Below, in pieces: positions 2,979-32,584 of a stretch of DNA of 33,942 nt. The stretch's first letter is position 1. Every line of letters starts with the position of its first letter. The translations under genes were made by a program, and so were the position numbers. The notes beneath the pieces are model-generated. The model was not told the DNA's origin and did no database searches. It saw nothing but the letters and a program-made list of their open reading frames with translations. This DNA is from an uncultured Candidatus Saccharibacteria bacterium (GTDB lineage: Bacteria > Patescibacteriota > UBA1384 > XYA2-FULL-43-10 > 1-14-0-10-43-13): the NCBI GenBank assembly GCA_964363695.1, contig CAYIJI010000001.1, forward strand, positions 1 to 33,942, given 5' to 3'.

Positions 2979-3089
2979 CCAAGGAATTTCCAACACAGAT
3001 CTATTACGCAGATCGACACAGATGGCACAAGAGAATCAGCGAATATCAGTGTGATTAATCAGCGTTGGAATTACTTTGAAAGGAAATTT

Positions 3090-3473
3090 ATGGAATATAC
3101 AGAAAAAGTAATGGATCACTTTGCCAATCCCCGCAATGTCGGCGAAATAGAAAATGCTGACGGAGTGGGCGAAGTCGGCAATCTTAAGTGTGGCGATGTG
3201 ATGCAGATATCGATCAAAGTCGGCAAGAGAGCAGGGGAAGAGTATATCGAAGATATTAAGTTTAAGACTTTGGGATGTGCGGCAGCGATTGCTTCTTCCT
3301 CAATGACTACCGAGCTAGCTAGGGGCAAGAGTCTTGAAGAAGCCCAAAAGATTTCCAAAGATGATATCAACGAAGCTTTGGGTAAATTGCCGGCGCCAAA
3401 ATACCACTGTTCGATCTTGGCGGCTGAGGGAATTAAAAAAGCTATTCTTGACTACAAGAACAAGCATAAATAG
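3090..3473 (+). CDS. iscU: IscU/NifU-type Fe-S cluster scaffold
   Basis: MEYTEKVMDHFANPRNVG, GNLKCGD, LGCAAAIASSS and KYHCS supply the three conserved Cys ligands. I prefer the ATG at 3090 (AAAGGA upstream) to the ORF-track start at 3051. Confidence 0.85.
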   Translation: MEYTEKVMDHFANPRNVGEIENADGVGEVGNLKCGDVMQISIKVGKRAGEEYIEDIKFKTLGCAAAIASSSMTTELARGKSLEEAQKISKDDINEALGKLPAPKYHCSILAAEGIKKAILDYKNKHK

Positions 3474-3639
3474 GAAATTACAACACAGAAATATATTGAC
3501 GCTTGACACTAGATGCTAGAAATTAGAATTTGAAATTAGAAACTAGACATTCGAACTTCAGCCTTCTAACTTCAAGATCAAACTTCCAGTTTCGAGAGTC
3601 TAGCCTCAATAACTTAAAGATCAGTGTTGTAAATACATT

Positions 3640-4437
3640 ATGAAAAACTATTTTGACGGTAAGAAGATTAGAGATGAAATAATCGAAGATCTGAAAAATA
3701 AAATAGAAAAAATGGAGCGGAAGCCTGGCTTAGCTGTTTTTTTGATTGGAAATGATGTTATTTGCGAGAGGTATGTTGCTCTTAAAAAGCGAATTGCTGA
3801 GAAAATCGGCATTTTTGTAAGAGTCTACAAATTCGATGAAAATAGCGAGCAGCAAGAAATTATTTCTAAAATAAAAGAGCTAAACACTGATAATACAATC
3901 GATGGAATAATGGTCCAAATTCCTATCCCAAAAAACTTTGATAAGTATGAAATTATTAATGCTATTAGTCCGGAGAAAGACATTGATGGATTGCGCTTTT
4001 GTGCGGGATTTCACTCTCATTTTACTCCGCCAGTCGTTCTTGCAATATTAAAAGCAATTGAGTTAGCGAATAAGGATATAGAAGAATGCAAAGTTTTGGT
4101 GGTTGGCAGAGGTTTACTAGTGGGCTGGCCGGTGGCTCAGTGTATGGAAGAGGCGGTTAAGGGTCTTGTAATTGCTGATGGGAGCACAAAGAACTTGGAA
4201 AATCTTACGGAAGATGCCGATGTGATTATCTCTGCCACCGGTAAATCGAATTTGATTAAACCAGATATGATTAAAGAAGGCGCCGTTCTAATTGATGCCG
4301 GCACTTCGGAGGTTGGGGGAGAGCTTTTGGGCGACATCGATCCAGAGTCTTATAAGAGAGCCTCGTTCTACACGCCGGTTCCGGGTGGAATTGGCCCTGT
4401 TACAGTGGCAATGTTATTGAAGAATTTAGTTGGATAG
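3640..4437 (+). CDS. folD: Bifunctional methylenetetrahydrofolate dehydrogenase/cyclohydrolase
   Basis: DGIMVQIPIP, KDIDGL, VVGRGLLVGWP, ATGKSNLIK and VPGGIGPVTVAMLLKN are FolD hallmarks. Confidence 0.85.
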   Translation: MKNYFDGKKIRDEIIEDLKNKIEKMERKPGLAVFLIGNDVICERYVALKKRIAEKIGIFVRVYKFDENSEQQEIISKIKELNTDNTIDGIMVQIPIPKNFDKYEIINAISPEKDIDGLRFCAGFHSHFTPPVVLAILKAIELANKDIEECKVLVVGRGLLVGWPVAQCMEEAVKGLVIADGSTKNLENLTEDADVIISATGKSNLIKPDMIKEGAVLIDAGTSEVGGELLGDIDPESYKRASFYTPVPGGIGPVTVAMLLKNLVG

Positions 4438-4490
4438 TTAGTTTACAAATATCTTTTGAGAAGTACTGTTAAAAATTGTGCCGTCCGTGC

Positions 4491-4519
4491 TTGACAGGTT
4501 GGTAATTTTAATGTATAAT
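4491..4519 (+). promoter_or_regulatory. Consensus sigma70-type promoter of the DGR target gene
   Basis: TTGACA (4491-4496), an exact 17-nt spacer, then TATAAT (4514-4519). Confidence 0.65.
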
Positions 4520-4680
4520 AGCGCCCAGTTTAGTAATTTGACAATTCCTTTCCTTGGAGCTTAATTGGCTAGCTCACGTAAGATAGCCGGTTAAGCTCTA
4601 AGGAGCAAGAAAGGCGCAATAAATCCTCGAGCATTTGTATTTTACGATTTGCCGAGTAGCGCACGAAGGAGACGGTCGGA

Positions 4681-5604
4681 ATGGCTAAGACCATCGGAAC
4701 TGCAGGCTTCACAGAAATAACGCATGAAAAGTGCGGCAAGGGGATCGCTAGGGTAATAGACGGCGTCCCGCATGTTGAGTGCACACGGAGAGGTTGCCGA
4801 GAATGGGTGCCTCTTCATGGTTTGGTCCAGATGAGTGATATTCAGCAAGTGCTGGCTCTCATAGGATCAGGTCAGGTTTCGTTAGCCGATATTATGGCGC
4901 TAGCAGACCCGTTCACCGCTTATCGGCAGATCGATGGGCTATTCGTGGTTGGCGCGGCGGAGCTGGATCAGCTTTTCCGAACGGAATCTAATCCGCTTGG
5001 ACTCGATTCTGGCTGGGTTCCACAAATACCTGTTCCGAGTGATTTGGATCAGTGGATCCGTTCTGAGCAGTGGCGCACAGACAAGAATTGGCAGACTCGT
5101 GCTGCTCTTGTGTTGGTGCCACCAAAGATCGGGGATTTCCCATCCAGCCTGGTCAGCCAAAGCTATCTGCTTGGAGTGAGCCATGATGGAATCCCCCCTG
5201 GAATTATCCGCTCAGATGTTCTCTGGAGCAACTACTTCGTCCAGCCTAAATACAACTGGGCGATGGAACCGGCAACAGCAGAGTGGCAATGGATGCTCGT
5301 ATACGAGCATCCAGTCTTCATCACGCAGAAGGATTGGGACAAGCAACAGGGAATCGCGCGACAATATAGGATGCCGATTTCCACTGTTGCGCAAGACGCA
5401 TGGGGACTTAATATGGTTCATGCCGTTTACGGTGTTAGCCTCCGTTTGTCAACGTGGTCACGGACAAGTTCCCTCTGCGATGGCAACCCGCTCTACGTCC
5501 GCTCGATCGACGGCAGCGTCAGCGTCTATCAGGGCTGGGATCCTCGGTTTGCGGGCGGCGTTGTGGCGGCTTCCGTCCAGGGAGTTCCAGCACTTGATTG
5601 TTGA
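4681..5604 (+). CDS. DGR variable (target) protein; the C-terminal 38 codons are the variable repeat
   Basis: 307 aa, with AAGGAG 9 nt before the ATG. The 3' end (5472-5585) is the VR. I recognised no signal peptide or TM segment. The N-terminus has a Cys/His-rich stretch (EKCGKG...HVECTRRGC). A C-type-lectin-like fold of the VR domain is expected from DGR biology but cannot be verified by eye. Confidence 0.85.
   Translation: MAKTIGTAGFTEITHEKCGKGIARVIDGVPHVECTRRGCREWVPLHGLVQMSDIQQVLALIGSGQVSLADIMALADPFTAYRQIDGLFVVGAAELDQLFRTESNPLGLDSGWVPQIPVPSDLDQWIRSEQWRTDKNWQTRAALVLVPPKIGDFPSSLVSQSYLLGVSHDGIPPGIIRSDVLWSNYFVQPKYNWAMEPATAEWQWMLVYEHPVFITQKDWDKQQGIARQYRMPISTVAQDAWGLNMVHAVYGVSLRLSTWSRTSSLCDGNPLYVRSIDGSVSVYQGWDPRFAGGVVAASVQGVPALDC
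5472..5585 (+). repeat. DGR variable repeat (VR)
   Basis: Aligns without gaps to 5932-6045 at a constant 460-nt offset. There are 19 mismatches, all where the TR has A. The 3' 24 nt (tgtggcggcttccgtccagggagt) are identical to the TR and GC-rich, as for an IMH (initiation of mutagenic homing). Confidence 0.9.
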
Positions 5605-5655: not shown

Positions 5656-5931
5656 ATTTTCATGCCCTAGATTTGTCTTTTTTGTAATTTTTGTTATTAT
5701 ATATTCGAAAGTAGGTAGAGATTTTCGATTTACGAATCGGGAGCGCCGAAATCTCTGAACTTCAATTAGTCAGAATCTGTTAATCCAAGGATTAATGGAG
5801 AGAATGAACGAATGTTTGGAAACTCCGTGCCTGTTTTCTAGAGTAGGTGTTCGGGTTAACCGAGCTACTATCAAATAAAATACAGCTCCAAGAGAAATCA
5901 AAGAGCAGTGCACATAGGTGGAAAATAGGCT

Positions 5932-6045
5932 AATCTACGATGGCAACCCGCTCAACGTCAACTCGAACGACGACAGCGTCAACGTCAATCAGAACTGGAA
6001 TCCTCAGAATGCGGACGACGATGTGGCGGCTTCCGTCCAGGGAGT
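5932..6045 (+). repeat. DGR template repeat (TR), non-coding
   Basis: Adenine-rich counterpart of the VR. In the VR frame it reads AAC/AAT/GAC codons at the variable positions. It lies 30 nt upstream of the RT start. Confidence 0.9.
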
Positions 6046-6075
6046 CTCTAAACTATACAAAAGCATCCTAAAAAG

Positions 6076-7203
6076 ATGCTTTTGTTGCTTTTAACCAACC
6101 GCCTAACATTCTGCCGATTTCTTGCAGTTTTTCTTCCAGAAAAAGATATTTTTTCACAGATTATTAGTATTGAAAACTTATACGAAAGTTGGGCTGAATT
6201 TAAATACGGCAAGCGCAAGAAAGGCGATGTCCAGGCTTTTGAAAGAAAACTGGAAGATAATTTGTTCTCTTTGCGATACGATTTAAAGAATAGAACGTAC
6301 CGACATTCGGATTATACCTCATTTTACATCACTGATCCAAAATTACGCCATATTCACAAAGCGGAAGTACGAGATCGGATTGCGCATCATGCGATTTATA
6401 GAATTTTATACACAATATTTGATAAAGGTTTTATTTACGATTCGTATTCTTGCCGATTAGAAAAAGGCACGCACAAAGCTGTTGCTCGACTTAAAAATTT
6501 TACTCAAAAAGTTAGCAAAAACAATACAATTCCCTGTTATGCTTTGAAATGCGACGTTAAGAAATTTTTTGATTCGGTTGACCATGAAATTTTGCTTTCG
6601 TTAATCAAGAGAAAAATTGCTGATCCAGATACATTATTGTTGCTTGAAGAGATTATCGAAAGTTTTAGTAAACCAACTAAAACCGCTGGTGTTCAGCTAG
6701 ATCTTTTTGATTTGCATCGCGCAAATCGAGAGAGAGAGAGAGAGAGAGAGCTGCAGCCTTCGGCCGCTAGCGGTAAGGGAATCCCAATTGGCAATTTAAC
6801 CAGTCAACTTTTTGCCAATATATACATGAACGAACTTGATCAATTTGTTAAACACAAGCTGAAGATTAAATACTATCTTCGCTATTGCGATGATTTTATT
6901 ATCCTGGGTAATCAAGAGGAAGAGCTGCATAAAATCGTGGAAAGAATTGGCGAGTTTCTTTTCAATAATTTAAAGCTTTCTTTACATCCTAATAAGGTCT
7001 CAATACGAAAATTGAATCAAGGGGTAGATTTTTTAGGCTACATCGTATTGCCGTATTATACAGTTTTAAGGACAAAAACAAGGAAAAGAATGTTGAAGAA
7101 AGTCAATAAAAAGAATTTGTTTTCATATTTGGGGCTTTTGAAGCATTGTGATGGGTATGAGCAGTCCAGATTGATTCTTGATAAAGTAAAGCAGTGCGAA
7201 TGA
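6076..7203 (+). CDS. DGR reverse transcriptase
   Basis: SYSCRLEKGTHKA, LKCDVKKFFDSVDHEIL, GIPIGNLTSQLFANIYMNELDQF (the DGR-specific I/LGxxxSQ motif), YLRYCDDFIILG (YxDD) and LSLHPNKV...GVDFLGY. Contains an in-frame (GA)11 tract. The start codon is uncertain because the ATG at 6076 lies inside a hairpin. Confidence 0.9.
   Translation: MLLLLLTNRLTFCRFLAVFLPEKDIFSQIISIENLYESWAEFKYGKRKKGDVQAFERKLEDNLFSLRYDLKNRTYRHSDYTSFYITDPKLRHIHKAEVRDRIAHHAIYRILYTIFDKGFIYDSYSCRLEKGTHKAVARLKNFTQKVSKNNTIPCYALKCDVKKFFDSVDHEILLSLIKRKIADPDTLLLLEEIIESFSKPTKTAGVQLDLFDLHRANRERERERELQPSAASGKGIPIGNLTSQLFANIYMNELDQFVKHKLKIKYYLRYCDDFIILGNQEEELHKIVERIGEFLFNNLKLSLHPNKVSIRKLNQGVDFLGYIVLPYYTVLRTKTRKRMLKKVNKKNLFSYLGLLKHCDGYEQSRLILDKVKQCE
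6728..6750 (+). repeat. (GA)11G dinucleotide microsatellite inside the RT gene
   Basis: gagagagagagagagagagagag, translated RERERERE, lies just upstream of the IPIGNLTSQ motif. Confidence 0.95.
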
Positions 7204-7244: not shown

Positions 7245-8507
7245 ATGAAAAATAAAATAAAGAAAATAGTTGATATTCCACCTCACCCAGCCTCTCCTTG
7301 GAAAGGAGAGGAGAAGATTCGAGTAGCTATTGGAATGTCTGGCGGAGTTGATTCTTCTGTTGCGGCAAAAATTCTGAAAGACCAAGGATATGAAGTGATT
7401 GGTTTTATGATGAAGCTTTGGCCTGGGTCTGACCCGTCTGTCTGCGACAGCCGAGGCAAGGACAACGCTTGCTGTGATATTGACGGACTTCAGGATGCAA
7501 AGCGGATTGCGGCAATTTTAGATATTCCATTTTATGTCGTCGACGTAAGGGAGAAATTTAAGAAGGAAGTTGCTGATTATTTTATCGAAGAATATAAGAG
7601 CCTGCGTACTCCAAATCCATGCGTCCGCTGTAATGAGCGAATTAAATTTGGTTGGCTCTTGGACTTTGCCAAACAAACCGGATGCGACTATTTAGCGACT
7701 GGACACTACGCTCGCATAGCGAGCGATTTATCATTTATCAATTCTCATTTCTCATTGAATGAAAAATTATCAAATGACCAAATGAATGAAAAATGGAAAA
7801 TGGTCAATGGAAAATTTCATCTTTTGCGTGGCAAGGATGATAAAAAAGATCAATCATATTTTCTCTATCGCTTGAACCAAGACCAGTTGAAGCATATTAT
7901 TTTTCCAGTAGGCGAATTTATTAAAGAGGAAACGCGGGCTTTGGCCAAAAAGTGGAATTTGCCAGTCCATGAGAAAAAGGAAAGCCAGGAAATATGCTTT
8001 ATACAGGAAAAGGATTACCGTGATTTTTTGAAGAAAAACATTTCTGAAGAGTATTTTAAAGAAGGGGACATTGTTGACATGGACGATAATGTAATCGGAA
8101 AACATCAAGGGCTTATCAATTATACAATCGGGCAGCGTAAAGGCATCGAACAGATATCAGATAACAGATATCTGATAACAGTAGATAAAAGGCCAATGTA
8201 TGTTGTTGGGTTTAATGTAGAAAAGAACCAGTTGATTGTTGGTGAAGATAAGGATATCTATAAAGATGAAATGATTATTGGTGATTTATCATGGGTTCAG
8301 AGTACAGATAACAGAATACAGGTGACAGATAACTTATCTGTGAAAATCAGATACAGGCATCCGGCAGTTAATTGTAGAATTAAGAATACAGATAACAGTA
8401 GACAGATAACAGTAGAGTTTTTTGAGCCGCAGAGAGCAATTACGCCAGGCCAGAGCGCGGTATTCTATTTGGAGGATGAAGTGCTTGGTGGAGGCATAAT
8501 ACAATAA
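7245..8507 (+). CDS. mnmA: tRNA-specific 2-thiouridylase MnmA with several in-frame repeat insertions
   Basis: VAIGMSGGVDSSVAA (PP-loop), NPCVRCN, GHYAR, KDQSYFLY and the C-terminal PGQSAVFY. Confidence 0.9.
   Translation: MKNKIKKIVDIPPHPASPWKGEEKIRVAIGMSGGVDSSVAAKILKDQGYEVIGFMMKLWPGSDPSVCDSRGKDNACCDIDGLQDAKRIAAILDIPFYVVDVREKFKKEVADYFIEEYKSLRTPNPCVRCNERIKFGWLLDFAKQTGCDYLATGHYARIASDLSFINSHFSLNEKLSNDQMNEKWKMVNGKFHLLRGKDDKKDQSYFLYRLNQDQLKHIIFPVGEFIKEETRALAKKWNLPVHEKKESQEICFIQEKDYRDFLKKNISEEYFKEGDIVDMDDNVIGKHQGLINYTIGQRKGIEQISDNRYLITVDKRPMYVVGFNVEKNQLIVGEDKDIYKDEMIIGDLSWVQSTDNRIQVTDNLSVKIRYRHPAVNCRIKNTDNSRQITVEFFEPQRAITPGQSAVFYLEDEVLGGGIIQ
7727..7820 (+). repeat. In-frame AT-rich palindromic repeat in mnmA (TCATTT/AAATGA, CCATTTT/AAAATGG word family)
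   Basis: Encodes LSFINSHFSLNEKLSNDQMNEKWKMVNGKF between the conserved GHYAR and KDQSYF blocks. The same word family fills the intergenic regions 25455-25620 and 25860-25965. Confidence 0.5.
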
Positions 8508-8529: not shown

Positions 8530-10839
8530 ATGGATCTAGAGACTAAAATTCAATACCTATCTGGAGTGGGGCCGAAAATGGCAGCAAAGCTTAATCGGCT
8601 TGGGGTTGAAACGGTTTCGGATCTTATTTTTTATTACCCAAGAACATACAAAGACTTTAGTAATATAACTAGAATCTCCGATATTCGATATTCAAACAAG
8701 GAAGCGATCTCAATTAAGGGGACCATACTTGGCATTGCCAACAAAACAACCAGTCGAAGGCGTTTTACTGTTACTGAAGCCGTAGTAGAAGACGGTACAG
8801 GAAGCCTGAAGGTAATTTGGTTTAACCAGCCTTTTTTAGCTAAAATGCTTACTCCTGGCCGAGAGGTTATTTTAAACGGGAAAGCGCAATACAACTTTTT
8901 TGCGAAAGAAGTGGTAATGGAGTCGCCTGATCGTGCTCTTCGCGAAAGCATCGTTTCGATTTATGGCGAAACAGCAGGGATAACAAGCACCTATATTCGA
9001 AAATTAGTATCAAATATTAAGGATCAAATATCGAGTATTGGAGAATGGCTACCGCAGGAATTGCTACGTCATTCCCGATTTAGTCGGGAATCTACTAATA
9101 GTGATACTATCCTGGATCCCCGCCTTCGCGGGGATGACATAGGAGAGGGCAGGGATGACAATTGTTTGAATTTGCTTTCGATCCAAGAAGCATTAAATAG
9201 CATTCATCAGCCGAAAAACACAGAAATGTTGGCGCAGGCGAAGCGAAGAATTGCTTTTGATGAACTTTTTATGATTGCTTTACGAGCGAATTTAAGCAAG
9301 GAAGAGATTAAAAAAGAGAACGCTCCTATTATTGACATTAATGATAAAAATCTTGCTATCGCTAGATTTTTATCATATTTACCATTCAAGTTAACTGATG
9401 ACCAGAAAAAGTCGGCTTGGCAAATTGTTAAAGATATTGGGCAAAGCAAGCCGATGAATCGTCTTTTGAATGGTGATGTCGGGAGCGGCAAAACTGTTGT
9501 GGCTGCAGTTGCCGCTTTTGTGGCAGTTAAAGCAGGCTTTCGAGTGGCTTTTATGGTACCGACTGAAATCCTTGCACAGCAACATTTTAAAACGTTTTGT
9601 GAATTGTTCGATGTGCAAAATATAAGCATTGGACTTTATACTGCAAATTGCAAAGATAATTTTAAATTTAAAATTCCTGCCTTGCCGGCAGGCAGGTCTA
9701 ATTTAAAATCAATTTCTAATTCTAAAATTTCAAATAAAAGACAAAAAGAAGCTGAAGTGTTGAGTTCTGACATAGTTATTGGTACGCAAGCACTAATTCA
9801 AAAGGATGTTGAGTTAGAGAATATAGGATTGGTGATAGTCGATGAACAACATCGGTTTGGAGTTGTTCAGCGTCAAGCGCTGAAGCAGTTGGGTGTAGGG
9901 AGCGGGGAACAGGGAGAAAAAACTTCAAACTCTCATTCGAGTCTGAGCCTGAGGGCTCTTCCCTCAGAGTCGAAGACCAAACTCCAAATTCCTCACTTCT
10001 TGAGTATGACCGCAACGCCGATTCCCAGAACATTACATTTGGCTTTATTCGGCGACTTGGATATTTCTGTAATTTCACAAAAGCCGGCCGATAGAAAAGA
10101 AATCAAAACGCGGGTAGTTGAGGAAATTAATCGCTATAAGGCATATGAATTTATTCGTAAACAAATTCAATTAGGCAGACAAGCATTTGTTATTTGTCCC
10201 TTGATAGAACAGGTTACAGATAACAGGATACAGATAGCAGAATTATTTGCCGAAGAAAAAAAGACGGTGATTAGCGAATATGAGAAGCTACAAAAAATAT
10301 TTCCTGAGTTCAGAATAGGGATGCTGCATGGACGGCTTAAGGCAAAAGAAAAAGACGCAGTTATGGAGGAATTTTCCGAGAACAAGATTAACATCCTAGT
10401 TAGTACATCGGTGGTCGAGGTTGGGATTGATGTGCCTAACGCGACCGTAATGGCCATCGAAGATGCCGAACGTTTTGGCCTGGCTCAGATTCATCAGTTT
10501 CGAGGACGAGTAGGCAGGGCCGAACATCAGTCGTTTTGCTTTCTGTTTTCCTCTACAATGAATCCTCGCGCAATTAAGCGTTTAAAGGATCTCGAAGTAA
10601 CTTCAGATGGGTTTAAGCTGGCAGAAATTGATCTGGAAACTAGGGGGCCAGGAGCAGTGTTTGGCACTGAGCAATCCGGCCTTTTGGATTTAAAGATGGC
10701 AAACTTTAGTGATAGAATGTTAATCGAACAGGCAAGCTCAGCTGCAAAAGGGATTGTTGAAAACGATCCTGAACTTAAAAGCCACCCTTTTCTTAAAGAA
10801 AAAATCGCTGACTATTTACAGAATAAACACTTGGAGTAG
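8530..10839 (+). CDS. recG: ATP-dependent DNA helicase RecG with at least four in-frame repeat insertions
   Basis: The N-terminal YLSGVGPKMAAKLNRLG...YYPRTY, Walker A GDVGSGKT, DEQHRFGV, TATPIPRT and the QFRGRVGR motif. Confidence 0.9.
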   Translation: MDLETKIQYLSGVGPKMAAKLNRLGVETVSDLIFYYPRTYKDFSNITRISDIRYSNKEAISIKGTILGIANKTTSRRRFTVTEAVVEDGTGSLKVIWFNQPFLAKMLTPGREVILNGKAQYNFFAKEVVMESPDRALRESIVSIYGETAGITSTYIRKLVSNIKDQISSIGEWLPQELLRHSRFSRESTNSDTILDPRLRGDDIGEGRDDNCLNLLSIQEALNSIHQPKNTEMLAQAKRRIAFDELFMIALRANLSKEEIKKENAPIIDINDKNLAIARFLSYLPFKLTDDQKKSAWQIVKDIGQSKPMNRLLNGDVGSGKTVVAAVAAFVAVKAGFRVAFMVPTEILAQQHFKTFCELFDVQNISIGLYTANCKDNFKFKIPALPAGRSNLKSISNSKISNKRQKEAEVLSSDIVIGTQALIQKDVELENIGLVIVDEQHRFGVVQRQALKQLGVGSGEQGEKTSNSHSSLSLRALPSESKTKLQIPHFLSMTATPIPRTLHLALFGDLDISVISQKPADRKEIKTRVVEEINRYKAYEFIRKQIQLGRQAFVICPLIEQVTDNRIQIAELFAEEKKTVISEYEKLQKIFPEFRIGMLHGRLKAKEKDAVMEEFSENKINILVSTSVVEVGIDVPNATVMAIEDAERFGLAQIHQFRGRVGRAEHQSFCFLFSSTMNPRAIKRLKDLEVTSDGFKLAEIDLETRGPGAVFGTEQSGLLDLKMANFSDRMLIEQASSAAKGIVENDPELKSHPFLKEKIADYLQNKHLE
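9068..9160 (+). repeat. In-frame GTCATTCCCG...GGGGATGACA palindromic element in recG
   Basis: gtcattcccgatttagtcgggaat plus ggatccccgccttcgcggggatgaca, the same family as 21386-21410, 21987-22011 and 24251-24275. Translated HSRFSRESTNSDTILDPRLRGDDIGEGRDD. Confidence 0.7.
9657..9735 (+). repeat. In-frame copy in recG of the AATTTTAAATTTAAAATT-type AT-rich repeat with a central palindrome
   Basis: aattttaaatttaaaattcctgccttgccggcaggcaggtctaatttaaaatcaatttctaattctaaaatttc. The same word family occurs in the intergenic regions 1416-1525, 21860-21910 and 24690-24960. Translated NFKFKIPALPAGRSNLKSISNSKIS. Confidence 0.6.
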
Positions 10840-10924: not shown

Positions 10925-11482
10925 ATGACAAGTAAAAATTTAAAATCTGAAGAATTGATTAAAAAACTAGAATCTTTTGTTGAGAAATATCGTTTTTTTG
11001 TAGGAAGCGGGTTAATAGTATTGATTTTAGCAGGGGCTGGGATTTTGTTATGGAGGGAGAATTTTGCGAAGCAAAATCCAGAATCAAGAATCGCGAATCT
11101 TGAATCAAGAATCAGCCGGCTGGAAGCCGACAATAATCAAGAAACAAGAAGCAATAACCAAACAAATTCCAATATTCAAGAAGATAATATCCAAACTGAT
11201 CAAGGGCATGTGGCGGGAGCAAGCAGTCAGAATACAGTCGAACAGATAACAGATAACAGTAAACAGACGACAACCAGTCAGCCAGTGAACAGCAAGATCA
11301 ATATCAATACCGCTTCTGAGTCCGAGCTCGATTCACTTCCTGGGATTGGTCCGACTTATGCTAAGAGAATAATTGAATATCGAAATGCCAACGGCGGGTT
11401 TAAGAGTATTGAAGAAATAAAGAACGTAAAGGGAATCGGCGACAAAACTTTTCTAAAATTCAAGGATAGAATAACGATCTAA
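10925..11482 (+). CDS. comEA: ComEA-type DNA-binding competence protein (N-terminal TM, C-terminal helix-hairpin-helix)
   Basis: TM segment FFVGSGLIVLILAGAGILLW. C-terminus ININTASESELDSLPGIGPTYAKRIIEYRNANGGFKSIEEIKNVKGIGDKTF. Confidence 0.85.
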   Translation: MTSKNLKSEELIKKLESFVEKYRFFVGSGLIVLILAGAGILLWRENFAKQNPESRIANLESRISRLEADNNQETRSNNQTNSNIQEDNIQTDQGHVAGASSQNTVEQITDNSKQTTTSQPVNSKININTASESELDSLPGIGPTYAKRIIEYRNANGGFKSIEEIKNVKGIGDKTFLKFKDRITI

Positions 11483-12056: not shown

Positions 12057-12189
12057 ACAAAGTCGAAGATCGACAAAGGCAAACCAGTCGAAAGGCTGGG
12101 ACGCAAAACTATAGGGCCTTCTTGAGAAATCAAGGGTGGCAGCCAGTTGCCGAAACTTCAAATGAGCTCGGGGTTGAACTTCGTCTTTG
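12057..12189 (+). promoter_or_regulatory. Candidate c-di-GMP-I (GEMM-I) riboswitch
   Basis: The core at 12073-12153 reads ACAAAGGCAAACC-AGUC-GAAA-GGCUGGGACGCAAAAC...CUUGA-GAAA-UCAAG...GGCAGCCAGUUGCCGAA. It matches the conserved GEMM-I blocks as remembered from the Vc2 aptamer (GGCAAACC, a GAAA-capped hairpin, GGGACGCAAAG, AGC.GGGUUACCGA). GGCAA (12078-12082) can pair with UUGCC (12147-12151). Confidence 0.65.
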
Positions 12190-12217: not shown

Positions 12218-12691
12218 ATGAAGAGTCGTATTATTAAAAATCAGTTTCTGGAGCGCGCATTCCGCACACATGTGAGGGTTTCGGAAGATATATTCGGCAG
12301 AGGCCGGATAAATATTCTGAAGCTGCTAGAACAAGAATTTCTTGCTAAGACAGAATCAGAAAACATTATTGAGGTGCAAGAAATTCCTGTTCTAAGGAAT
12401 GGGCATACAATGAAGTGGATACTCGGAGATCACAAGGAAGGCGAAGAAATTTGCCTGACGTGCGATCAGTGCGGATGGGTAAGTTTACCCATTCACATAT
12501 TTAAAGAGTATTTCCACTATTCCTCGTTTAGGGCCAACCTTCCAGAAGATGAGCGGGCACTTATGTCTGCTCGTATGCACTTGACGGAAGTGATGGGAGG
12601 CAAAGTAAGAAGTTATTGTCCACACTGTAAGAAACATTTAATTGCAGTGTTGGACACAAGGAAAGAAGAACGCCAGCCCGAACAGGGCTAG
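12218..12691 (+). CDS. Hypothetical zinc-ribbon protein (CxxCxxC ... CxxC)
   Basis: 157 aa, with AGGGGGA as RBS. Cys clusters are CLTCDQCG and CPHCKKH. No family recognised. Confidence 0.6.
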   Translation: MKSRIIKNQFLERAFRTHVRVSEDIFGRGRINILKLLEQEFLAKTESENIIEVQEIPVLRNGHTMKWILGDHKEGEEICLTCDQCGWVSLPIHIFKEYFHYSSFRANLPEDERALMSARMHLTEVMGGKVRSYCPHCKKHLIAVLDTRKEERQPEQG

Positions 12692-13646: not shown

Positions 13647-14408
13647 TTATAAATCTTGTTTCTTTAAGGCTTGGATTGCCAAAGAAAGCAGGATTGTTGT
13701 GAAAAGGACAGAATAAATAATAGGGTAAATTATTTGGGCTGAATTGGGCAGAGAACCATAAACAACGCTATTTCTTAAATTAAACTTTTCGAGATTAGGG
13801 AACACATAGTACACGATCAGAAGCAAATATTTTACAAAAGGACTAGCTTTTTCAATAAACCCTTTAATTAATCCAATTGAATGGCCGATGTAAAGAACGA
13901 TGATAGTATAAATTGTTCCAGCCAGAGGAGTTGTGATTGTGGAGAATACAATAGTGAGGGAGATGAAAATCGAGAGCTCAAAAATTAAAAGTAGAATGGC
14001 AAATAGAGAAGCATAGTCAAATCCGCCGCCTTTGATAAGAACAATGGCTATATAAATGGCTGTCATAAAAAGAATATTTAATATGACACTAAACCAGAGA
14101 CCGAAGAATTTGCCTAAAATGAACTGGAACTCGGAGACTGGCTTGGAAAAAATAACATAGAGAGTTCTTTTCTCCAGCTCCTTGTAAATGAGTGAGGTCC
14201 CAAGAAAAATAGCGATTATTAAACTAAAAATATAAATGCCGGCTAATCCAAAATCTTTAATAACTTTCACATCTTCTCCAAGAGAGATTGAGCCAAACAT
14301 TGTTGTGGAAATTAGGAAAAGAAGGGCAAAGCAGAGGATGCCATAGAGAATTTTGTCTCGAATGGTTTCTTTGAAAGTATTTTTTGCGATTGTTAAAATT
14401 ATATTCAT
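13647..14408 (-). CDS. ABC-2-type transporter permease
   Basis: 253 aa with about six hydrophobic spans. It lies downstream of the ABC ATPase gene on the same strand. Confidence 0.7.
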   Translation of the reverse strand: MNIILTIAKNTFKETIRDKILYGILCFALLFLISTTMFGSISLGEDVKVIKDFGLAGIYIFSLIIAIFLGTSLIYKELEKRTLYVIFSKPVSEFQFILGKFFGLWFSVILNILFMTAIYIAIVLIKGGGFDYASLFAILLLIFELSIFISLTIVFSTITTPLAGTIYTIIVLYIGHSIGLIKGFIEKASPFVKYLLLIVYYVFPNLEKFNLRNSVVYGSLPNSAQIIYPIIYSVLFTTILLSLAIQALKKQDL

Positions 14409-14429
14409 AATTTTTAGCCTTTAAGCATA

Positions 14430-14833
14430 TAAGCATTTAAGCAAGCAAGCCCTTTTAAGTTAGTATCTTTGTGATTTTTTCCAGCTGTTTAATAATTTGC
14501 CGACTTCTTCCATTTTAGCTGAAACCTCGTTAAACAATTCTTCTTCGATGTATTTTAAGTCTTTCGATAGTAAAATTTGATATTTAAGTTCTTCAAGCGA
14601 ACCTTCTGCAATTATGTAAAATCTTTTGCTGTCATTTAATGATTTTCGAGCAAATCCTTCAGCAATATTGGATGGAACGGAAACAGCGCATCTTCTAAGT
14701 TGGCTGACTAAATTAAATGTTTCCGATTTTGGTAGATCATTTGTAATTTTGTAAATTACTAAAGCAATTTCATGGGCTTTCTGCCAAGCAATTATTTCTT
14801 TGAATGATTTAATACTCATAGCTTAAATGCTTA
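14430..14833. mobile_element. Inverted-repeat-flanked cassette carrying the four-helix-bundle gene
   Basis: A perfect 13-bp inverted repeat: taagcatttaagc (14430-14442) and gcttaaatgctta (14821-14833). The left copy ends 17 nt outside the gene and the right copy begins 1 nt past its start codon. Each copy lies within a longer TAAGC-word array. Confidence 0.6.
14460..14819 (-). CDS. Four-helix-bundle protein (23S rRNA intervening-sequence protein / Avd family)
   Basis: IAWQKAHEIALVIYKITNDLPKSETFNLVSQLRRCAVSVPSNIAEGFARKS...FYIIAEGSLEELKYQILLSKDL matches the TIGR02436/PF05635 pattern. That family includes the DGR accessory protein Avd. Confidence 0.8.
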   Translation of the reverse strand: MSIKSFKEIIAWQKAHEIALVIYKITNDLPKSETFNLVSQLRRCAVSVPSNIAEGFARKSLNDSKRFYIIAEGSLEELKYQILLSKDLKYIEEELFNEVSAKMEEVGKLLNSWKKSQRY

Positions 14834-14838
14834 CCAGC

Positions 14839-30176: not shown

Positions 30177-31052
30177 ATGCAAAATAATGAAATCGCATTA
30201 TTTGAAAAAAGAAAAATCAGAAGAGTTTGGCACCATGAAGAATGGTGGTTTTCTGTTATTGATGTGTGTGAAGCGCTAACAGATAGTGTTGACGCTGGAG
30301 CGTATTGGAGGAAATTAAAACAAAGGCTATTAAAAGAAGGGAGCGAGGTCGTGACATTTTGTCACGGACTGAAATTAGAGGCTTCTGACGGTAAAAAATA
30401 TGAAACTGATTGTGCCAATACTGAAGGGATTTTCCGAATTATTCAGTCCATTCCCTCGCCAAAAGCAGAACCATTTAAGCGATGGCTATCCAAAGTTGGT
30501 TATGAAAGGGTGCGAGAAATAGCCGATCCTGAATTGGCGATGAATCGGGCTAAGGAATTTTACAAGAAAAAAGGGTATTCAAGAGAATGGATAGATAAAA
30601 GACTTCGTGGAATCAATGTAAGGCAAACCTTGACCGACGAGTGGGACGACAGGGGGATTAAAAATAGCATGGAATATGCAATTTTGACAAACGAAATTAT
30701 GACTGGTGCTTTCGATATGGATGCGCGGAATTACAAAGAGTTTAAAGGATTAAAACAGGAGAATCTTCGCGACCATATGGATGACATGGAATTAATTTTA
30801 ACGATGTTAGCCGAGGCAACGACTACAAAGTTGCATCGAGATCGTGATTCCAAGGGTTTTGTGAAAATTAAAAATGATGCAAGCGACGGCGGGCGGATTA
30901 CGGGAGAAACTCGCAGAAAAATTGAAAAAACTTCAGGTAAACCCATTTCTACAAGTAATAATTATTTAAACAAATCCGAAATGTCGGATCGAATTTCATT
31001 AAAGTCTTCTACAAATAGGTTAAAAAGTGAACGGCAACAGGAGGATGGTTGA
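30177..31052 (+). CDS. Bro-N domain protein (phage antirepressor / DinD-like)
   Basis: FEKRKIRRVWHHEEWWFSVIDVCEALTDS...NTEGIFRIIQSIPSPKAEPFKRWL is a typical Bro-N pattern. The stop codon overlaps the TTG start of comM. Confidence 0.75.
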   Translation: MQNNEIALFEKRKIRRVWHHEEWWFSVIDVCEALTDSVDAGAYWRKLKQRLLKEGSEVVTFCHGLKLEASDGKKYETDCANTEGIFRIIQSIPSPKAEPFKRWLSKVGYERVREIADPELAMNRAKEFYKKKGYSREWIDKRLRGINVRQTLTDEWDDRGIKNSMEYAILTNEIMTGAFDMDARNYKEFKGLKQENLRDHMDDMELILTMLAEATTTKLHRDRDSKGFVKIKNDASDGGRITGETRRKIEKTSGKPISTSNNYLNKSEMSDRISLKSSTNRLKSERQQEDG

Positions 31053-32584
31053 ACAAGGTAGCTAAAATATTTTCGGCGGCCACAGTTGGGCTGAATTCTT
31101 TTCTTGTTGAAGTTGAGGTCGACATTGGAGCCGGGCTTCCTTCTTTTACTATAGTAGGGCTTCCCGATAAGGCGATTGACGAAAGCAAAGAAAGAATTCG
31201 GGCGGCGATCAAAAATTCCGAAGTCAATTTTCCCCAGCATCGACTTACTATCAATTTGGCGCCGGCCGACGTTAAGAAAGAGGGGCCCAGTTTTGACCTG
31301 CCGATGGCGGTCGGGATATTGCTCGCCGGTGAGCAGCTGGAACAGGTTGCTGAATACAAGAAATCTTTTTTTGTCGGTGAACTTTCACTCAATGGCGAGC
31401 TCCGCCATGTGAATGGAATTTTGCCGATCGTATTATTTGCACTAAAAAATGGCTACGAGCGGGTTTTTTTGCCGGAAGTCAATGCCTACGAGGCATCGCT
31501 CATTACGGGAATTGAAATAGTGCCGGTTAAATCTTTGAAACAGTTGATTTCACATTTAAGGAGCGAAGAAATCATAAAAGCTCATAAGCATGTAAGCAAG
31601 AAAGCAAGTAAGCAGGAAAGCGGAGAATATGATTTTTGCTATGTTGCGGGGCAGGAGCAGGTAAAAAGGGCGCTGGAGATTGCAGCAGCTGGGAATCATA
31701 ATATTCTTTTATCCGGGCCCCCGGGGTCGGGTAAAACTTTACTGGCCCGCAGTATCACAACCATTCTGCCCGACATGGATGAAGAGGAAATGCTCGACGT
31801 TACAAAGATTTATTCAGTTGCAGGGATGTTTAATGGCGACAGGGAAACTTTGATATCAAGGCGGCCGTTTCGTTCTCCACATCATACAACTTCGAGTGTG
31901 GCCTTGATTGGCGGAGGGCAATGGCCTCGGCCCGGAGAAATTAGTCTTTCTCATCGAGGTGTTCTGTTTCTAGATGAATTTCCTGAGTTTCCAAGAAGTG
32001 TGCTAGAAGCGTTGCGTCAGCCGTTGGAAGACGGAGTTGTTACAGTCTCAAGAGCTCAAGGCAGCTTAACCTTTCCGGCGGAATTTTTGTTGGTTGCAGC
32101 GCAAAACCCTTGCCCTTGCGGCTATCAATCTGATCCCGATAAACGGTGCATTTGCTCTCCGATCCAGATAATGCGGTACCAGAAAAAGATTTCCGGTCCG
32201 CTTTTGGATAGAATTGACATCCATATTGAGGTCCCACGGCTTAAGTATGATAAATTGACTAGCAAAAAAGTAGCCGAAGAGTCTAAAAATGTTAAAAAAA
32301 GAGTTCAAGAGGCGAGGGATATCCAAGCCAAGAGGTTTAAAGGTTTGAAAACAAAGGCGAATTCAGGGATCAGCGCACGGGAAATAAAAGAATTCTGTAA
32401 ATTAGACAAGGAAGCGGAGAAGATCATCGCAAATGCGGTTGAGCAGATGAAGCTTTCTGCTCGGGTTTACCATCGTCTATTGAAAATCGCCCGAACAATT
32501 GCCGACCTAGAAAAAACGGAAAATATTCAAGCGAACCATGTTGCGGAAGCCCTCCAATATAGACCTAAAGAGAAAGTTTATTAA
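31049..32584 (+). CDS. comM: Mg-chelatase-like ATPase ComM/YifB
   Basis: The N-terminal Lon-protease-like part (GLPSFTIVGLPDKAIDESKERI), Walker A GPPGSGKT, Walker B VLFLDE, a Zn-ribbon-like CPCGY...CIC and the C-terminal HVAEALQYR. Apparent TTG start. Contains an in-frame TAAGC array at 31577-31621 (KAHKHVSKKASKQES). Confidence 0.9.
   Translation: MNKVAKIFSAATVGLNSFLVEVEVDIGAGLPSFTIVGLPDKAIDESKERIRAAIKNSEVNFPQHRLTINLAPADVKKEGPSFDLPMAVGILLAGEQLEQVAEYKKSFFVGELSLNGELRHVNGILPIVLFALKNGYERVFLPEVNAYEASLITGIEIVPVKSLKQLISHLRSEEIIKAHKHVSKKASKQESGEYDFCYVAGQEQVKRALEIAAAGNHNILLSGPPGSGKTLLARSITTILPDMDEEEMLDVTKIYSVAGMFNGDRETLISRRPFRSPHHTTSSVALIGGGQWPRPGEISLSHRGVLFLDEFPEFPRSVLEALRQPLEDGVVTVSRAQGSLTFPAEFLLVAAQNPCPCGYQSDPDKRCICSPIQIMRYQKKISGPLLDRIDIHIEVPRLKYDKLTSKKVAEESKNVKKRVQEARDIQAKRFKGLKTKANSGISAREIKEFCKLDKEAEKIIANAVEQMKLSARVYHRLLKIARTIADLEKTENIQANHVAEALQYRPKEKVY

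Follow-up and report, generated by a model that had tools for sequence, protein, structure and literature searches.

A four-helix-bundle gene between inverted word arrays in a Saccharibacteria ABC transporter operon: a likely relative of 23S rRNA intervening sequences, beside a diversity-generating retroelement that has lost its avd

We analyzed a 33,942-nucleotide (nt) stretch of DNA from an uncultured Candidatus Saccharibacteria bacterium (assembly GCA_964363695.1, contig CAYIJI010000001.1, positions 1 to 33,942; hereafter the window), in which a small gene encoding a four-helix-bundle (4HB) protein divides an ATP-binding cassette (ABC) transporter operon and a diversity-generating retroelement (DGR) lies 7.3 kb away. 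The operon is encoded on the reverse strand, with an ABC ATPase as the upstream cistron (14839-15525) and an ABC-2 permease as the downstream cistron (13647-14408), each identified by a Pfam match. Between them, the 4HB gene (14460-14819, reverse strand) encodes a 119-residue protein with an isoelectric point (pI) of 8.9 that belongs to the PF05635/TIGR02436 family of '23S rRNA IVS proteins', named for the intervening sequences (IVSs) of 23S rRNA. Pfam and NCBIfam searches confirmed both the position and the family that an initial annotation had proposed from the sequence, with 131.3 bits against PF05635 (23S_rRNA_IVP; cut-off 33.8, covering model positions 1-106 of 106) and 122.9 bits against TIGR02436 ('four helix bundle protein'; cut-off 24). 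Relatives of the protein come mostly from Patescibacteria (the Candidate Phyla Radiation, CPR), and its sequence is also present on contigs of the Hainich groundwater metagenome. An AlphaFold2 monomer model (pLDDT 90.5) contains four helices, and a Foldseek search with this model returned the solved structures 2GSC (template-modeling (TM) score 0.84-0.88, root-mean-square deviation (rmsd) 1.4 Å) and 2RLD (TM 0.83-0.92). A sequence search of the PDB likewise matched 2GSC (E = 1.6e-25) and 2RLD, and did not match the DGR accessory protein Avd (4DWL). The gene is under purifying selection, with dN/dS values of 0.06-0.16 against its homologues and saturated synonymous sites.

The gene is enclosed by two arrays of short words, both with an 8-nt period and both built from TAAGCNNN words. 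On the coding strand the 5' arm (14821-14860, reverse strand) reads GGATAAGCTAATAAGCAAGTAAGCTGGTAAGCATTTAAGC, five 8-nt words of the form xTAAGCxx, the last of which stops 1 nt short of the 4HB start codon; its distal words double as the end of the ABC ATPase gene, where they encode the C-terminal residues KLISK and supply the stop codon (14839-14841). The 3' arm (14416-14450, reverse strand) carries GCTTA-type words on the coding strand (GCTTGCTTGCTTAAATGCTTATATGCTTAAAGGCT), begins 9 nt past the 4HB stop codon and finishes 7 nt ahead of the permease start codon. Within the arms we found the perfect 13-nt inverted repeat (IR) noted in the initial annotation, TAAGCATTTAAGC at 14430-14442 and GCTTAAATGCTTA at 14821-14833, which lengthens to 29 nt at 76% complementarity. 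Defining an IR score as the best ungapped inverted match between the 90 nt upstream and the 90 nt downstream of a gene, a score of 13 was reached in 0.05% of 2000 shuffles of the two 4HB flanks. For the double word TAAGCNNNTAAGC we counted 18 occurrences in the window versus 0.14 expected (0/100 shuffles), at 14422-14442, 14821-14857, 15531-15591, 22331-22367 and 31585-31597, so that the recurrence of TAAGC words at 15531-15594, 22331-22373 and 31577-31621 also stands as first described. Scans of the unit for promoters and terminators gave neither a terminator nor a good reverse-strand promoter, and no Rfam family covers its arms.

We then asked how general this layout is by fetching 80 homologous loci from species-representative genomes and scoring 89 4HB homologues (individual loci carry L numbers throughout). 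The median IR score was 14, and 81% of the homologues, drawn from many phyla, scored at least 10. The same threshold was reached by 8% when the flanks were compared in direct orientation, by 3-7% when arms were taken from other loci, by 2.5% of 204 other genes of the same loci (9% of the cassettes' immediate neighbors) and by 1.7% of 60 DGR Avd genes. The layout also holds outside the CPR, in Hymenobacter, Nitrospirota and Planctomycetes. The array period is 7 nt in 31 loci, 8 nt in 24 and 9 nt in 11, and the words are lineage-specific (GTAAGTT, AGACAGC, ATAAGCAAG, GGAGTCA and TTTAGAT, with ACAGATA in L055); word sequence and period vary by lineage, yet both arms of any one gene stay matched. 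Stems have a median length of 28 nt across cassettes, and the arms lie close to the ORF, with median distances of 15.5 nt from the end of the 5' arm to the start codon and of 4 nt from the stop codon to the beginning of the 3' arm. Neighboring genes are co-directional in 88% of cases upstream (gap about 50 nt) and 78% downstream (gap about 40 nt). The sense-strand 5' arm is purine-rich in 81% of cassettes and pyrimidine-rich in none, and the closest homologues show purine-rich words upstream on the coding strand with their reverse complement downstream. None of the 80 loci places the 4HB gene inside a 23S rRNA gene, and Rfam found no rRNA in the window or in these loci except for one distant 16S fragment. 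In the literature we found no description of inverted arrays around 4HB genes outside rRNA, an absence that is not proof of novelty.

Two further features of the survey concern individual groups of loci. 4HB genes can occur in clusters, with three in 4.2 kb of L028 and two each in L063, L070, L082 and L089, and each clustered copy carries its own word family (in L028, CAGCA 9-mers and ATAAGCAGA words). Among the Firmicutes loci (L047, L050, L053, L077 and L087), the upstream arrays of L047, L050 and L053 are C/A-rich (CCAACTNN, AACTGACC) and the flanks appear directly rather than inversely related (IR scores 5-7), which may represent a different arrangement.

The junction between the ATPase and permease genes was compared among relatives ordered by permease identity to the window, recording its states as gain, loss and DISPLACEMENT. 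In L176 (85% permease identity), a 73-nt spacer holds oppositely oriented GTAAAT and ACTTAC word arrays and no open reading frame (ORF). L013 (82%) keeps the synteny from glmS to recG and has a 44-nt spacer with neither arrays nor gene, in L009 (77%) the ATPase and permease genes overlap, and in L011 (73%) a 94-nt spacer lacks arrays; the four closest relatives of the junction are therefore without the 4HB gene. The 4HB cassette is present in L008 (69%) and L175 (68%). In L178 (61%), a DUF559 endonuclease-domain gene occupies the junction and a 4HB cassette with its arms sits in the next spacer, between the permease gene and a gene for a 264-residue protein. The DUF559 gene, which encodes a 132-residue protein with a Vsr-like endonuclease domain, lies in the ATPase-permease spacer of both L178 (2114-2512) and L179 (1461-1859), and the junction seems to attract small inserted genes.

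The nearest homologue of the window protein, L006 (81% identity), has unrelated neighbors; L007 (76%), likewise in an unrelated context, is located upstream of a giant fn3 protein, and L008 (76%) is at the same ABC junction, so the window copy is nearer to one in an unrelated context than to its syntenic counterparts (71-76%). Arm words co-vary across these copies: the window shares TAAGC/GCTTA with L006, and L007 shares TCAGC/GCTGA with L008. The arms of the window and L006 have GGTAAGCATTTAAGC in common despite saturated synonymous sites. Among pairs in non-homologous contexts, the 6-mer content of the arms rises with protein identity (Jaccard index from 0.025 to 0.077; rho = 0.20, p=4e-34), indicating that the arms travel with the gene. 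These results support inheritance, gain and loss of the cassette as a whole unit. The initial annotation had suggested a self-contained mobile cassette and a comparison of the ABC operon in related genomes for empty sites. On an evolutionary scale that suggestion is supported by the family-wide recurrence of gene plus inverted arrays, by the empty (L013, L009, L011, with ORF-less arrays in L176), filled and differently filled junctions, by the closest homologue lying in an unrelated context, and by arm words that follow the protein across such contexts.

The presence/absence pattern might in principle stem from repeated loss, and the 4HB gene could then be an old operon resident that was never mobile, with arrays that are slippage-prone spacer DNA of the kind CPR genomes carry. 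The identity of syntenic 4HB copies does roughly follow that of the permease (76% and 69% for L008, 71% and 68% for L175), and the window is rich in 7-8-nt tandem arrays of several kinds. However, this explanation would have to account for the gene missing in all four closest relatives of the junction and a different spacer in L178, for a nearest 4HB homologue in an unrelated context, for inverted arrays at 81% of 4HB genes versus 2.5% of other genes and 1.7% of CPR DGR Avd genes, and for a layout that extends beyond the CPR to Hymenobacter, Nitrospirota and Planctomycetes. We regard it as highly improbable.

We next evaluated pairing between the arms as RNA. The predicted arm-arm duplex of the window has an energy of -37.0 kcal/mol, compared to -15.5 ± 3.7 kcal/mol for shuffled arms, with none of 1000 shuffles as good. 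Across cassettes the median duplex energy was -31.3 kcal/mol for a gene's own arms, -17.2 kcal/mol when arms were taken from other loci and -15.3 kcal/mol for shuffled arms. The predicted window duplex is a 'beaded' stem in which helices of 5-6 base pairs (bp) are separated by internal loops of 2-3 nt, and in both the minimum-free-energy and the centroid fold of the cassette RNA (466 nt) the two arms are paired, which leaves the ORF in a loop.

Taken together, these data make it likely, in our view, that the 404-bp unit is an IVS-type cassette that resides in an mRNA operon instead of rRNA and is unrelated to the DGR. Such a unit would consist of a promoterless 4HB gene enclosed by oppositely oriented arrays of 8-nt words, reading on the coding strand as purine-rich TAAGC upstream and GCTTA downstream, and would be transcribed through read-through of the ABC operon. 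By analogy with the IVS of Coxiella, its arms may pair over about 30-47 nt into a beaded stem, with the ORF in the loop. RNase III may cut the paired arms, again by analogy, and cutting would free the 4HB mRNA and part the ATPase from the permease cistron. In the cryo-electron microscopy structure of the Bordetella DGR, an Avd pentamer grips an 11-bp stem-loop via flipped-out bases, with all five protomers involved (bioRxiv 10.1101/2023.10.23.563531), which makes it a reasonable hypothesis that a pentameric 4HB protein binds its own beaded stem as Avd binds the stem-loop of the DGR RNA. The cassette would spread as one whole.

A number of observations weigh against this interpretation. No Shine-Dalgarno motif precedes the start codon of the window copy, a clear IR is missing from about 19% of the 4HB homologues, and the loci from Firmicutes seem to depart from the general picture. 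Folded as a whole, the 466-nt RNA of the cassette is no more stable than its shuffles (z = -0.84), and we rejected the whole-cassette fold as support, the exceptional part being the arm-arm duplex. The ORF-less arrays of L176 form a weak hairpin (-5.9 kcal/mol, z = -0.69); a stable hairpin at that junction was dropped for this energy, and the opposite orientation of the arrays is what stands. Among 316 mismatches in 70 stems, sense-strand G.U pairs were not in excess of A.C (60 versus 73, p=0.30), so we make no claim of RNA-specific selection and the arms could matter as DNA; the word sequence itself is conserved beyond what complementarity would demand, which speaks against a purely RNA-level account. 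Solo arrays at 15531-15594, 22331-22373 and 31577-31621 stand apart from the cassette. The first of these is a leader array of eight 8-nt GCTTA-type words (read on the operon strand, the reverse strand) directly upstream of the ATPase start codon and complementary to the distal words of the cassette 5' arm, and in a predicted fold of the transcript from leader through ATPase to 4HB these distal words prefer to pair with the leader array. Arrays occupy the same position in L013 (2509-2548), which has no cassette, and in L175 (about 1785-1825, ACTTA words). Since the leader array is kept in the cassette-less L013, arrays may have a cassette-independent role, and the pyrimidine-type array before the ATPase may act as an independent leader element. 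Finally, no transposase, recombinase or target-site duplication was identified for the cassette. The arms are similar to the terminal inverted repeats of a transposon, but no direct repeat is evident by eye outside them, and the nearest empty site, at 82% permease identity, has diverged too far to fix the boundaries of the unit and hence to define a target-site duplication.

Some of these points would suit an element that acts as DNA, in which the arrays are terminal inverted repeats (TIRs) or protein-binding iterons and the RNA stem is incidental. Recognition of the arrays would then fall to the 4HB pentamer or to a transposase or recombinase encoded elsewhere, as in a non-autonomous transposon or a recombination cassette. 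The missing wobble bias toward the sense RNA in the 70 stems and the conservation of words where synonymous sites are saturated fit such an element, as do the ORF-less arrays at the same junction in L176 and solo arrays of matching words, which occur at 0.13 per kb in the same locus compared to 0.009 per kb in other loci. A transposon origin or mobility function of the IVS ORF was also proposed by Burgin et al. and by Ralph and McClelland, as cited in PMC4990558. However, the search for a transposase, recombinase or target-site duplication was negative for this kind of element as well, the constant polarity (purine-rich arm upstream) together with tight co-directional placement in operons is what a role in RNA leads one to expect, and the rRNA precedent is processed as RNA by RNase III. 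We consider a DNA-level element unlikely and retain the IVS-type cassette as the favored account.

The DGR of the window, flanked by folD and mnmA, raises a separate question, as the initial annotation had suggested that the 4HB protein might supply Avd function to it in trans. Its variable repeat (VR, 5474-5585, forward strand) lies at the 3' end of the target gene (4681-5604), and its template repeat (TR) lies at 5934-6045 (forward strand); the two differ at about 18 sites, all of them adenines of the TR. The reverse transcriptase (RT) ORF (6076-7203, forward strand) is intact, with the motifs IGNLTSQ and YCDD. The 27-codon ORF reported between VR and RT is present at 5795-5878. The statement that no avd stands beside the DGR was correct in that there is no intact gene, but a 3' remnant had been overlooked on the reverse strand. 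This remnant (6068-6160) comprises the last 26 codons and the stop codon of avd, about 95 N-terminal codons having been deleted; positions 6071-6160 encode KKYLFLEEKLQEIGRMLGGWLKATKA, corresponding to positions 96-121 of a 122-position profile of Avds from related DGRs, and score near-consensus on that profile (37.3 bits, E = 1.5e-10). The remnant abuts the TR, with its stop codon just beyond it, and the deletion left about 100 nt directly 3' of the TR in place. The 26-codon stump therefore marks this DGR as an avd-deletion derivative, and a search of the window for a second 4HB or Avd gene returned the stump alone.

To place this remnant in context, we scanned metagenomes with the window RT and recovered 80 relatives at 48-65% identity, of which 60 have a reverse-strand Avd ORF abutting the RT start (for example, L096 with VR 3000-3105, TR 3489-3594, avd 3599-4000 on the reverse strand and RT 3944-5059). 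This TR-(avd)-RT order, termed 'B3', was reported for 90% of CPR DGRs by Wu et al. (PMC5758913). Judged by the sequence of the stump, the window DGR evidently once had a dedicated avd in the TR-(avd)-RT order of its relatives and has lost all but 26 codons of it. For the RT relatives L112-L114, L133 and L154, more than 1 kb of upstream sequence is available and neither profile detects an Avd ORF in it; this clade of DGRs may have lost avd more than once. The first 25 or so codons of the RT ORF (6076-6150, MLLLLLTNRLTFCRFLAVFLPEKDI) run antisense to the avd remnant. MLLLLLTNRLTFCRFLAVFLPEKDI is unmatched in any RT relative, with alignments beginning at residues 16-26, so the true RT start codon is uncertain, and the annotated start was perhaps made by the avd deletion.

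The DGR may be a recently disabled element, or it may still be working with a helper in trans; the second option keeps a small probability, given that the RT is intact, that the VR differs at adenines only and that the stretch 3' of the TR is retained. As a specific form of it, the IVS-type 4HB protein could have replaced the lost avd and kept mutagenic retrohoming running. In favor of this, the DGR lacks the intact avd that 60 related DGRs carry, its RT ORF is intact with the DGR motifs, its VR differences (about 18) are confined to TR adenines, and the deletion spared about 100 nt 3' of the TR, the place of the spacer RNA that is essential in the Bordetella DGR. The 4HB gene is also the sole other Avd-superfamily ORF in 34 kb, and its product combines an Avd-like fold (TM 0.78-0.86), a pI of 8.9 and a score on the Pfam bAvd-like family PF22296 (48.5 bits) that passes the threshold of 40 but is far below that on PF05635.

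In contrast, profile comparisons place the protein firmly with IVS-type proteins that have no DGR, an outcome that the initial annotation had named beforehand as telling against its proposal. It scored 37.4 bits on a profile of the 60 RT-adjacent Avds, which themselves score at least 110 bits, versus 185.9 bits on a profile of non-DGR 4HB proteins from which it had been left out and on which the Avds reach at most 41.6 bits. On the NCBIfam Avd equivalog NF033474 it scored 49.9 bits, below the cut-off of 80, and the structures 8UB7 and 4DWL of Avd, to which its model aligns at 11-14% identity, ranked after 2GSC and 2RLD. The Avds of the related DGRs form a distinct subfamily without flanking arrays. 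No RT occurs within 3 kb in any of 93 homologous cassette loci (0/93), and in L170 a DGR with its own dedicated Avd is followed 1.2 kb downstream by a separate IVS-type 4HB gene (3143-3529). In the window itself, the 4HB gene is on the opposite strand from the RT, in another operon and with six unrelated genes between, and the same cassette and operon occur in L175 and L008, whose examined stretches contain no RT homologue. Wu et al. 2018 (PMC5758913) sought a distant avd in the genomes of avd-less DGRs and found none, and in the literature we found no description of a trans-acting Avd, although such an absence is not proof of novelty. With a recently disabled DGR being an equally simple reading, we judge a trans-acting role of the 4HB protein very unlikely.

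Beyond the leader array, the window contains several other repeats. A solo TAAGC array (22331-22373, forward strand) lies between convergent genes, following a hairpin that resembles a terminator. An array of TAAGC and AAAGC words (31577-31621, forward strand) lies in frame within the ORF of a YifB protein (Mg-chelatase-like ATPase, 31049-32584), where it falls in a linker of the protein and is translated as KAHKHVSKKASKQES; three 8-nt words amount to 24 nt, so the reading frame is kept. Tandem heptamers of the ACAGATA or AACAGAT type are found in frame at 1784-1801, 2065-2139, 8149-8181, 8298-8345, 8388-8416, 10208-10241 and 11241-11267, in genes for a cysteine-desulfurase-like protein (1530-2978), MnmA (7245-8507), a RecG-like protein (8530-10839) and a ComEA-like protein (10925-11482). 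They yield TDNRIQIT-like peptides and share their word with the GACAGAT of the Coxiella IVS and with the arms of L055; two of them, 2065-2094 and 2110-2139, form an inverted pair with a folding energy of -21.5 kcal/mol (z = -2.2). These in-frame arrays may be ORF-less relatives of 4HB cassettes. MnmA also carries an insertion of about 30 residues (7722-7818, SDLSFINSHFSLNEKLSNDQMNEKWKMVNGKF) made of ATTTATC/ATTTCTC and then AATGGAA words, its Pfam HUP domain extending over 229 residues for 200 model positions; the insertion forms a weak hairpin (z = -0.69).

A second repeat family consists of palindromic GTCATCC...GGATGAC elements, similar to repetitive extragenic palindromic (REP) sequences, in the intergenic regions 15597-15633, 21818-21850, 21923-22015 and 22470-22560. 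Traces of it are apparently in frame in the ORFs 1530-2978 and 8530-10839, giving peptides such as LDPRLRGDD and SHSEPEFSGEE, and L013 has such elements at 2375-2490 and 3353-3385, one of which fills its empty ATPase-permease spacer. Rfam further identified a c-di-GMP-I-GGC riboswitch aptamer (12069-12155, forward strand; 70.9 bits, gathering score 59) upstream of a 157-residue ORF (12218-12691) without a family assignment.

Since the early 1990s, no role has to our knowledge been established for the ORF of 23S rRNA IVSs, and thousands of its paralogues outside rRNA carry only the annotation "four helix bundle protein". Our results suggest that these paralogues keep the anatomy of an IVS, with the ORF in the loop of a stem formed by inverted word arrays, and give a loosely defined family the outline of a distinct element whose parts can be tested, namely arm pairing, RNase III cleavage and arm binding. 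More broadly, and tentatively, 4HB genes with inverted arrays of 7-9-nt words could form one widespread class of IVS-like selfish cassettes in the operon spacers of many phyla, of which 23S rRNA would be one special host and in which ORF-less derivatives would include in-frame hairpins inside conserved proteins; the pentamer would bind its own beaded stem, and Avd and 4HB proteins would put one RNA-stem-binding module to two different uses. We put this forward as a possibility that we hold to be doubtful in its full extent. For DGR annotation, a match to the Avd superfamily elsewhere in a genome should not be taken as evidence of a trans-acting Avd, as flanking arrays and profile scores cleanly split Avd from the IVS-type 4HB subfamily. 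The avd stump beside the TR, in turn, provides a natural avd-deletion mutant of a CPR DGR, and read-level variation in the VR could tell whether avd-deleted DGRs still work.

Several known systems bear comparison with the window cassette. Avd of the Bordetella phage (bAvd; 4DWL, 8UB7; NF033474; PF22296) has in common with the window protein its fold, a similar length, a basic charge and remote homology. In contrast to Avd, the 4HB gene is not beside a TR and RT, is flanked by inverted arrays and has homologues that are not linked to DGRs. The closest solved relatives are the S23p-family homopentamers XCC0516 (2GSC) and BT_0352 (2RLD), with 40% and 26% identity and rmsd values of 1.4-1.7 Å; both are chromosomal copies outside DGRs and rRNA, and we found no reported function or flanking-repeat architecture for either. 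Miniature inverted-repeat transposable element (MITE)-like and REP-like elements can enter coding sequences, as the Rickettsia palindromic elements do. The ORF-less inverted arrays in frame within conserved genes of the window (e.g. 2065-2139) and at the L176 junction recall these elements, and their relation to the 4HB cassettes, suggested by word similarity alone, resembles that of non-autonomous to autonomous elements; unlike MITE-like and REP-like elements, they involve no transposase, and in place of unique TIRs their arms consist of tandem word arrays. Cyanobacteria carry short tandemly repeated repetitive (STRR) sequences, tandem heptanucleotide repeats in intergenic DNA. The cyanobacterial 4HB homologue L067 (Dapis) likewise has GGAGTCA heptamers beside the gene, and we found no paper linking STRR repeats and 4HB genes.

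The closest likeness in overall anatomy is to the ORF-bearing 23S rRNA IVSs of Coxiella burnetii and Leptospira, in which, as in the window, a PF05635 ORF of about 120 residues lies in the loop of a stem. The Coxiella IVS is 428-444 nt long, holds its S23p ORF in the loop of a 28-bp stem of terminal IRs, carries two or three tandem GACAGAT heptamers (a strain-variable number) before the start codon, and is cleaved within the stem by RNase III (PMC4990558). The Coxiella IVS and the window cassette are alike in total size (about 400-440 nt), the 28-bp Coxiella stem compares with a median of 28 nt in 4HB cassettes, and tandem repeats precede the start codon in both, as GACAGAT heptamers in Coxiella and as 8-nt TAAGC words in the window, with ACAGATA arms in the 4HB homologue L055. 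The two differ in their host, a protein-coding operon spacer for the window cassette versus helix 9, 25 or 45 of 23S rRNA for IVSs, and in their ORF, which is under purifying selection in the window but decaying and probably untranslated in Coxiella. RNase III excision, demonstrated for rRNA IVSs, would by extension apply to the window cassette. The cassette is best described as one of the IVS type, with the anatomy known from 23S rRNA but residing in a protein-coding operon, and the same anatomy recurs across the 4HB family.

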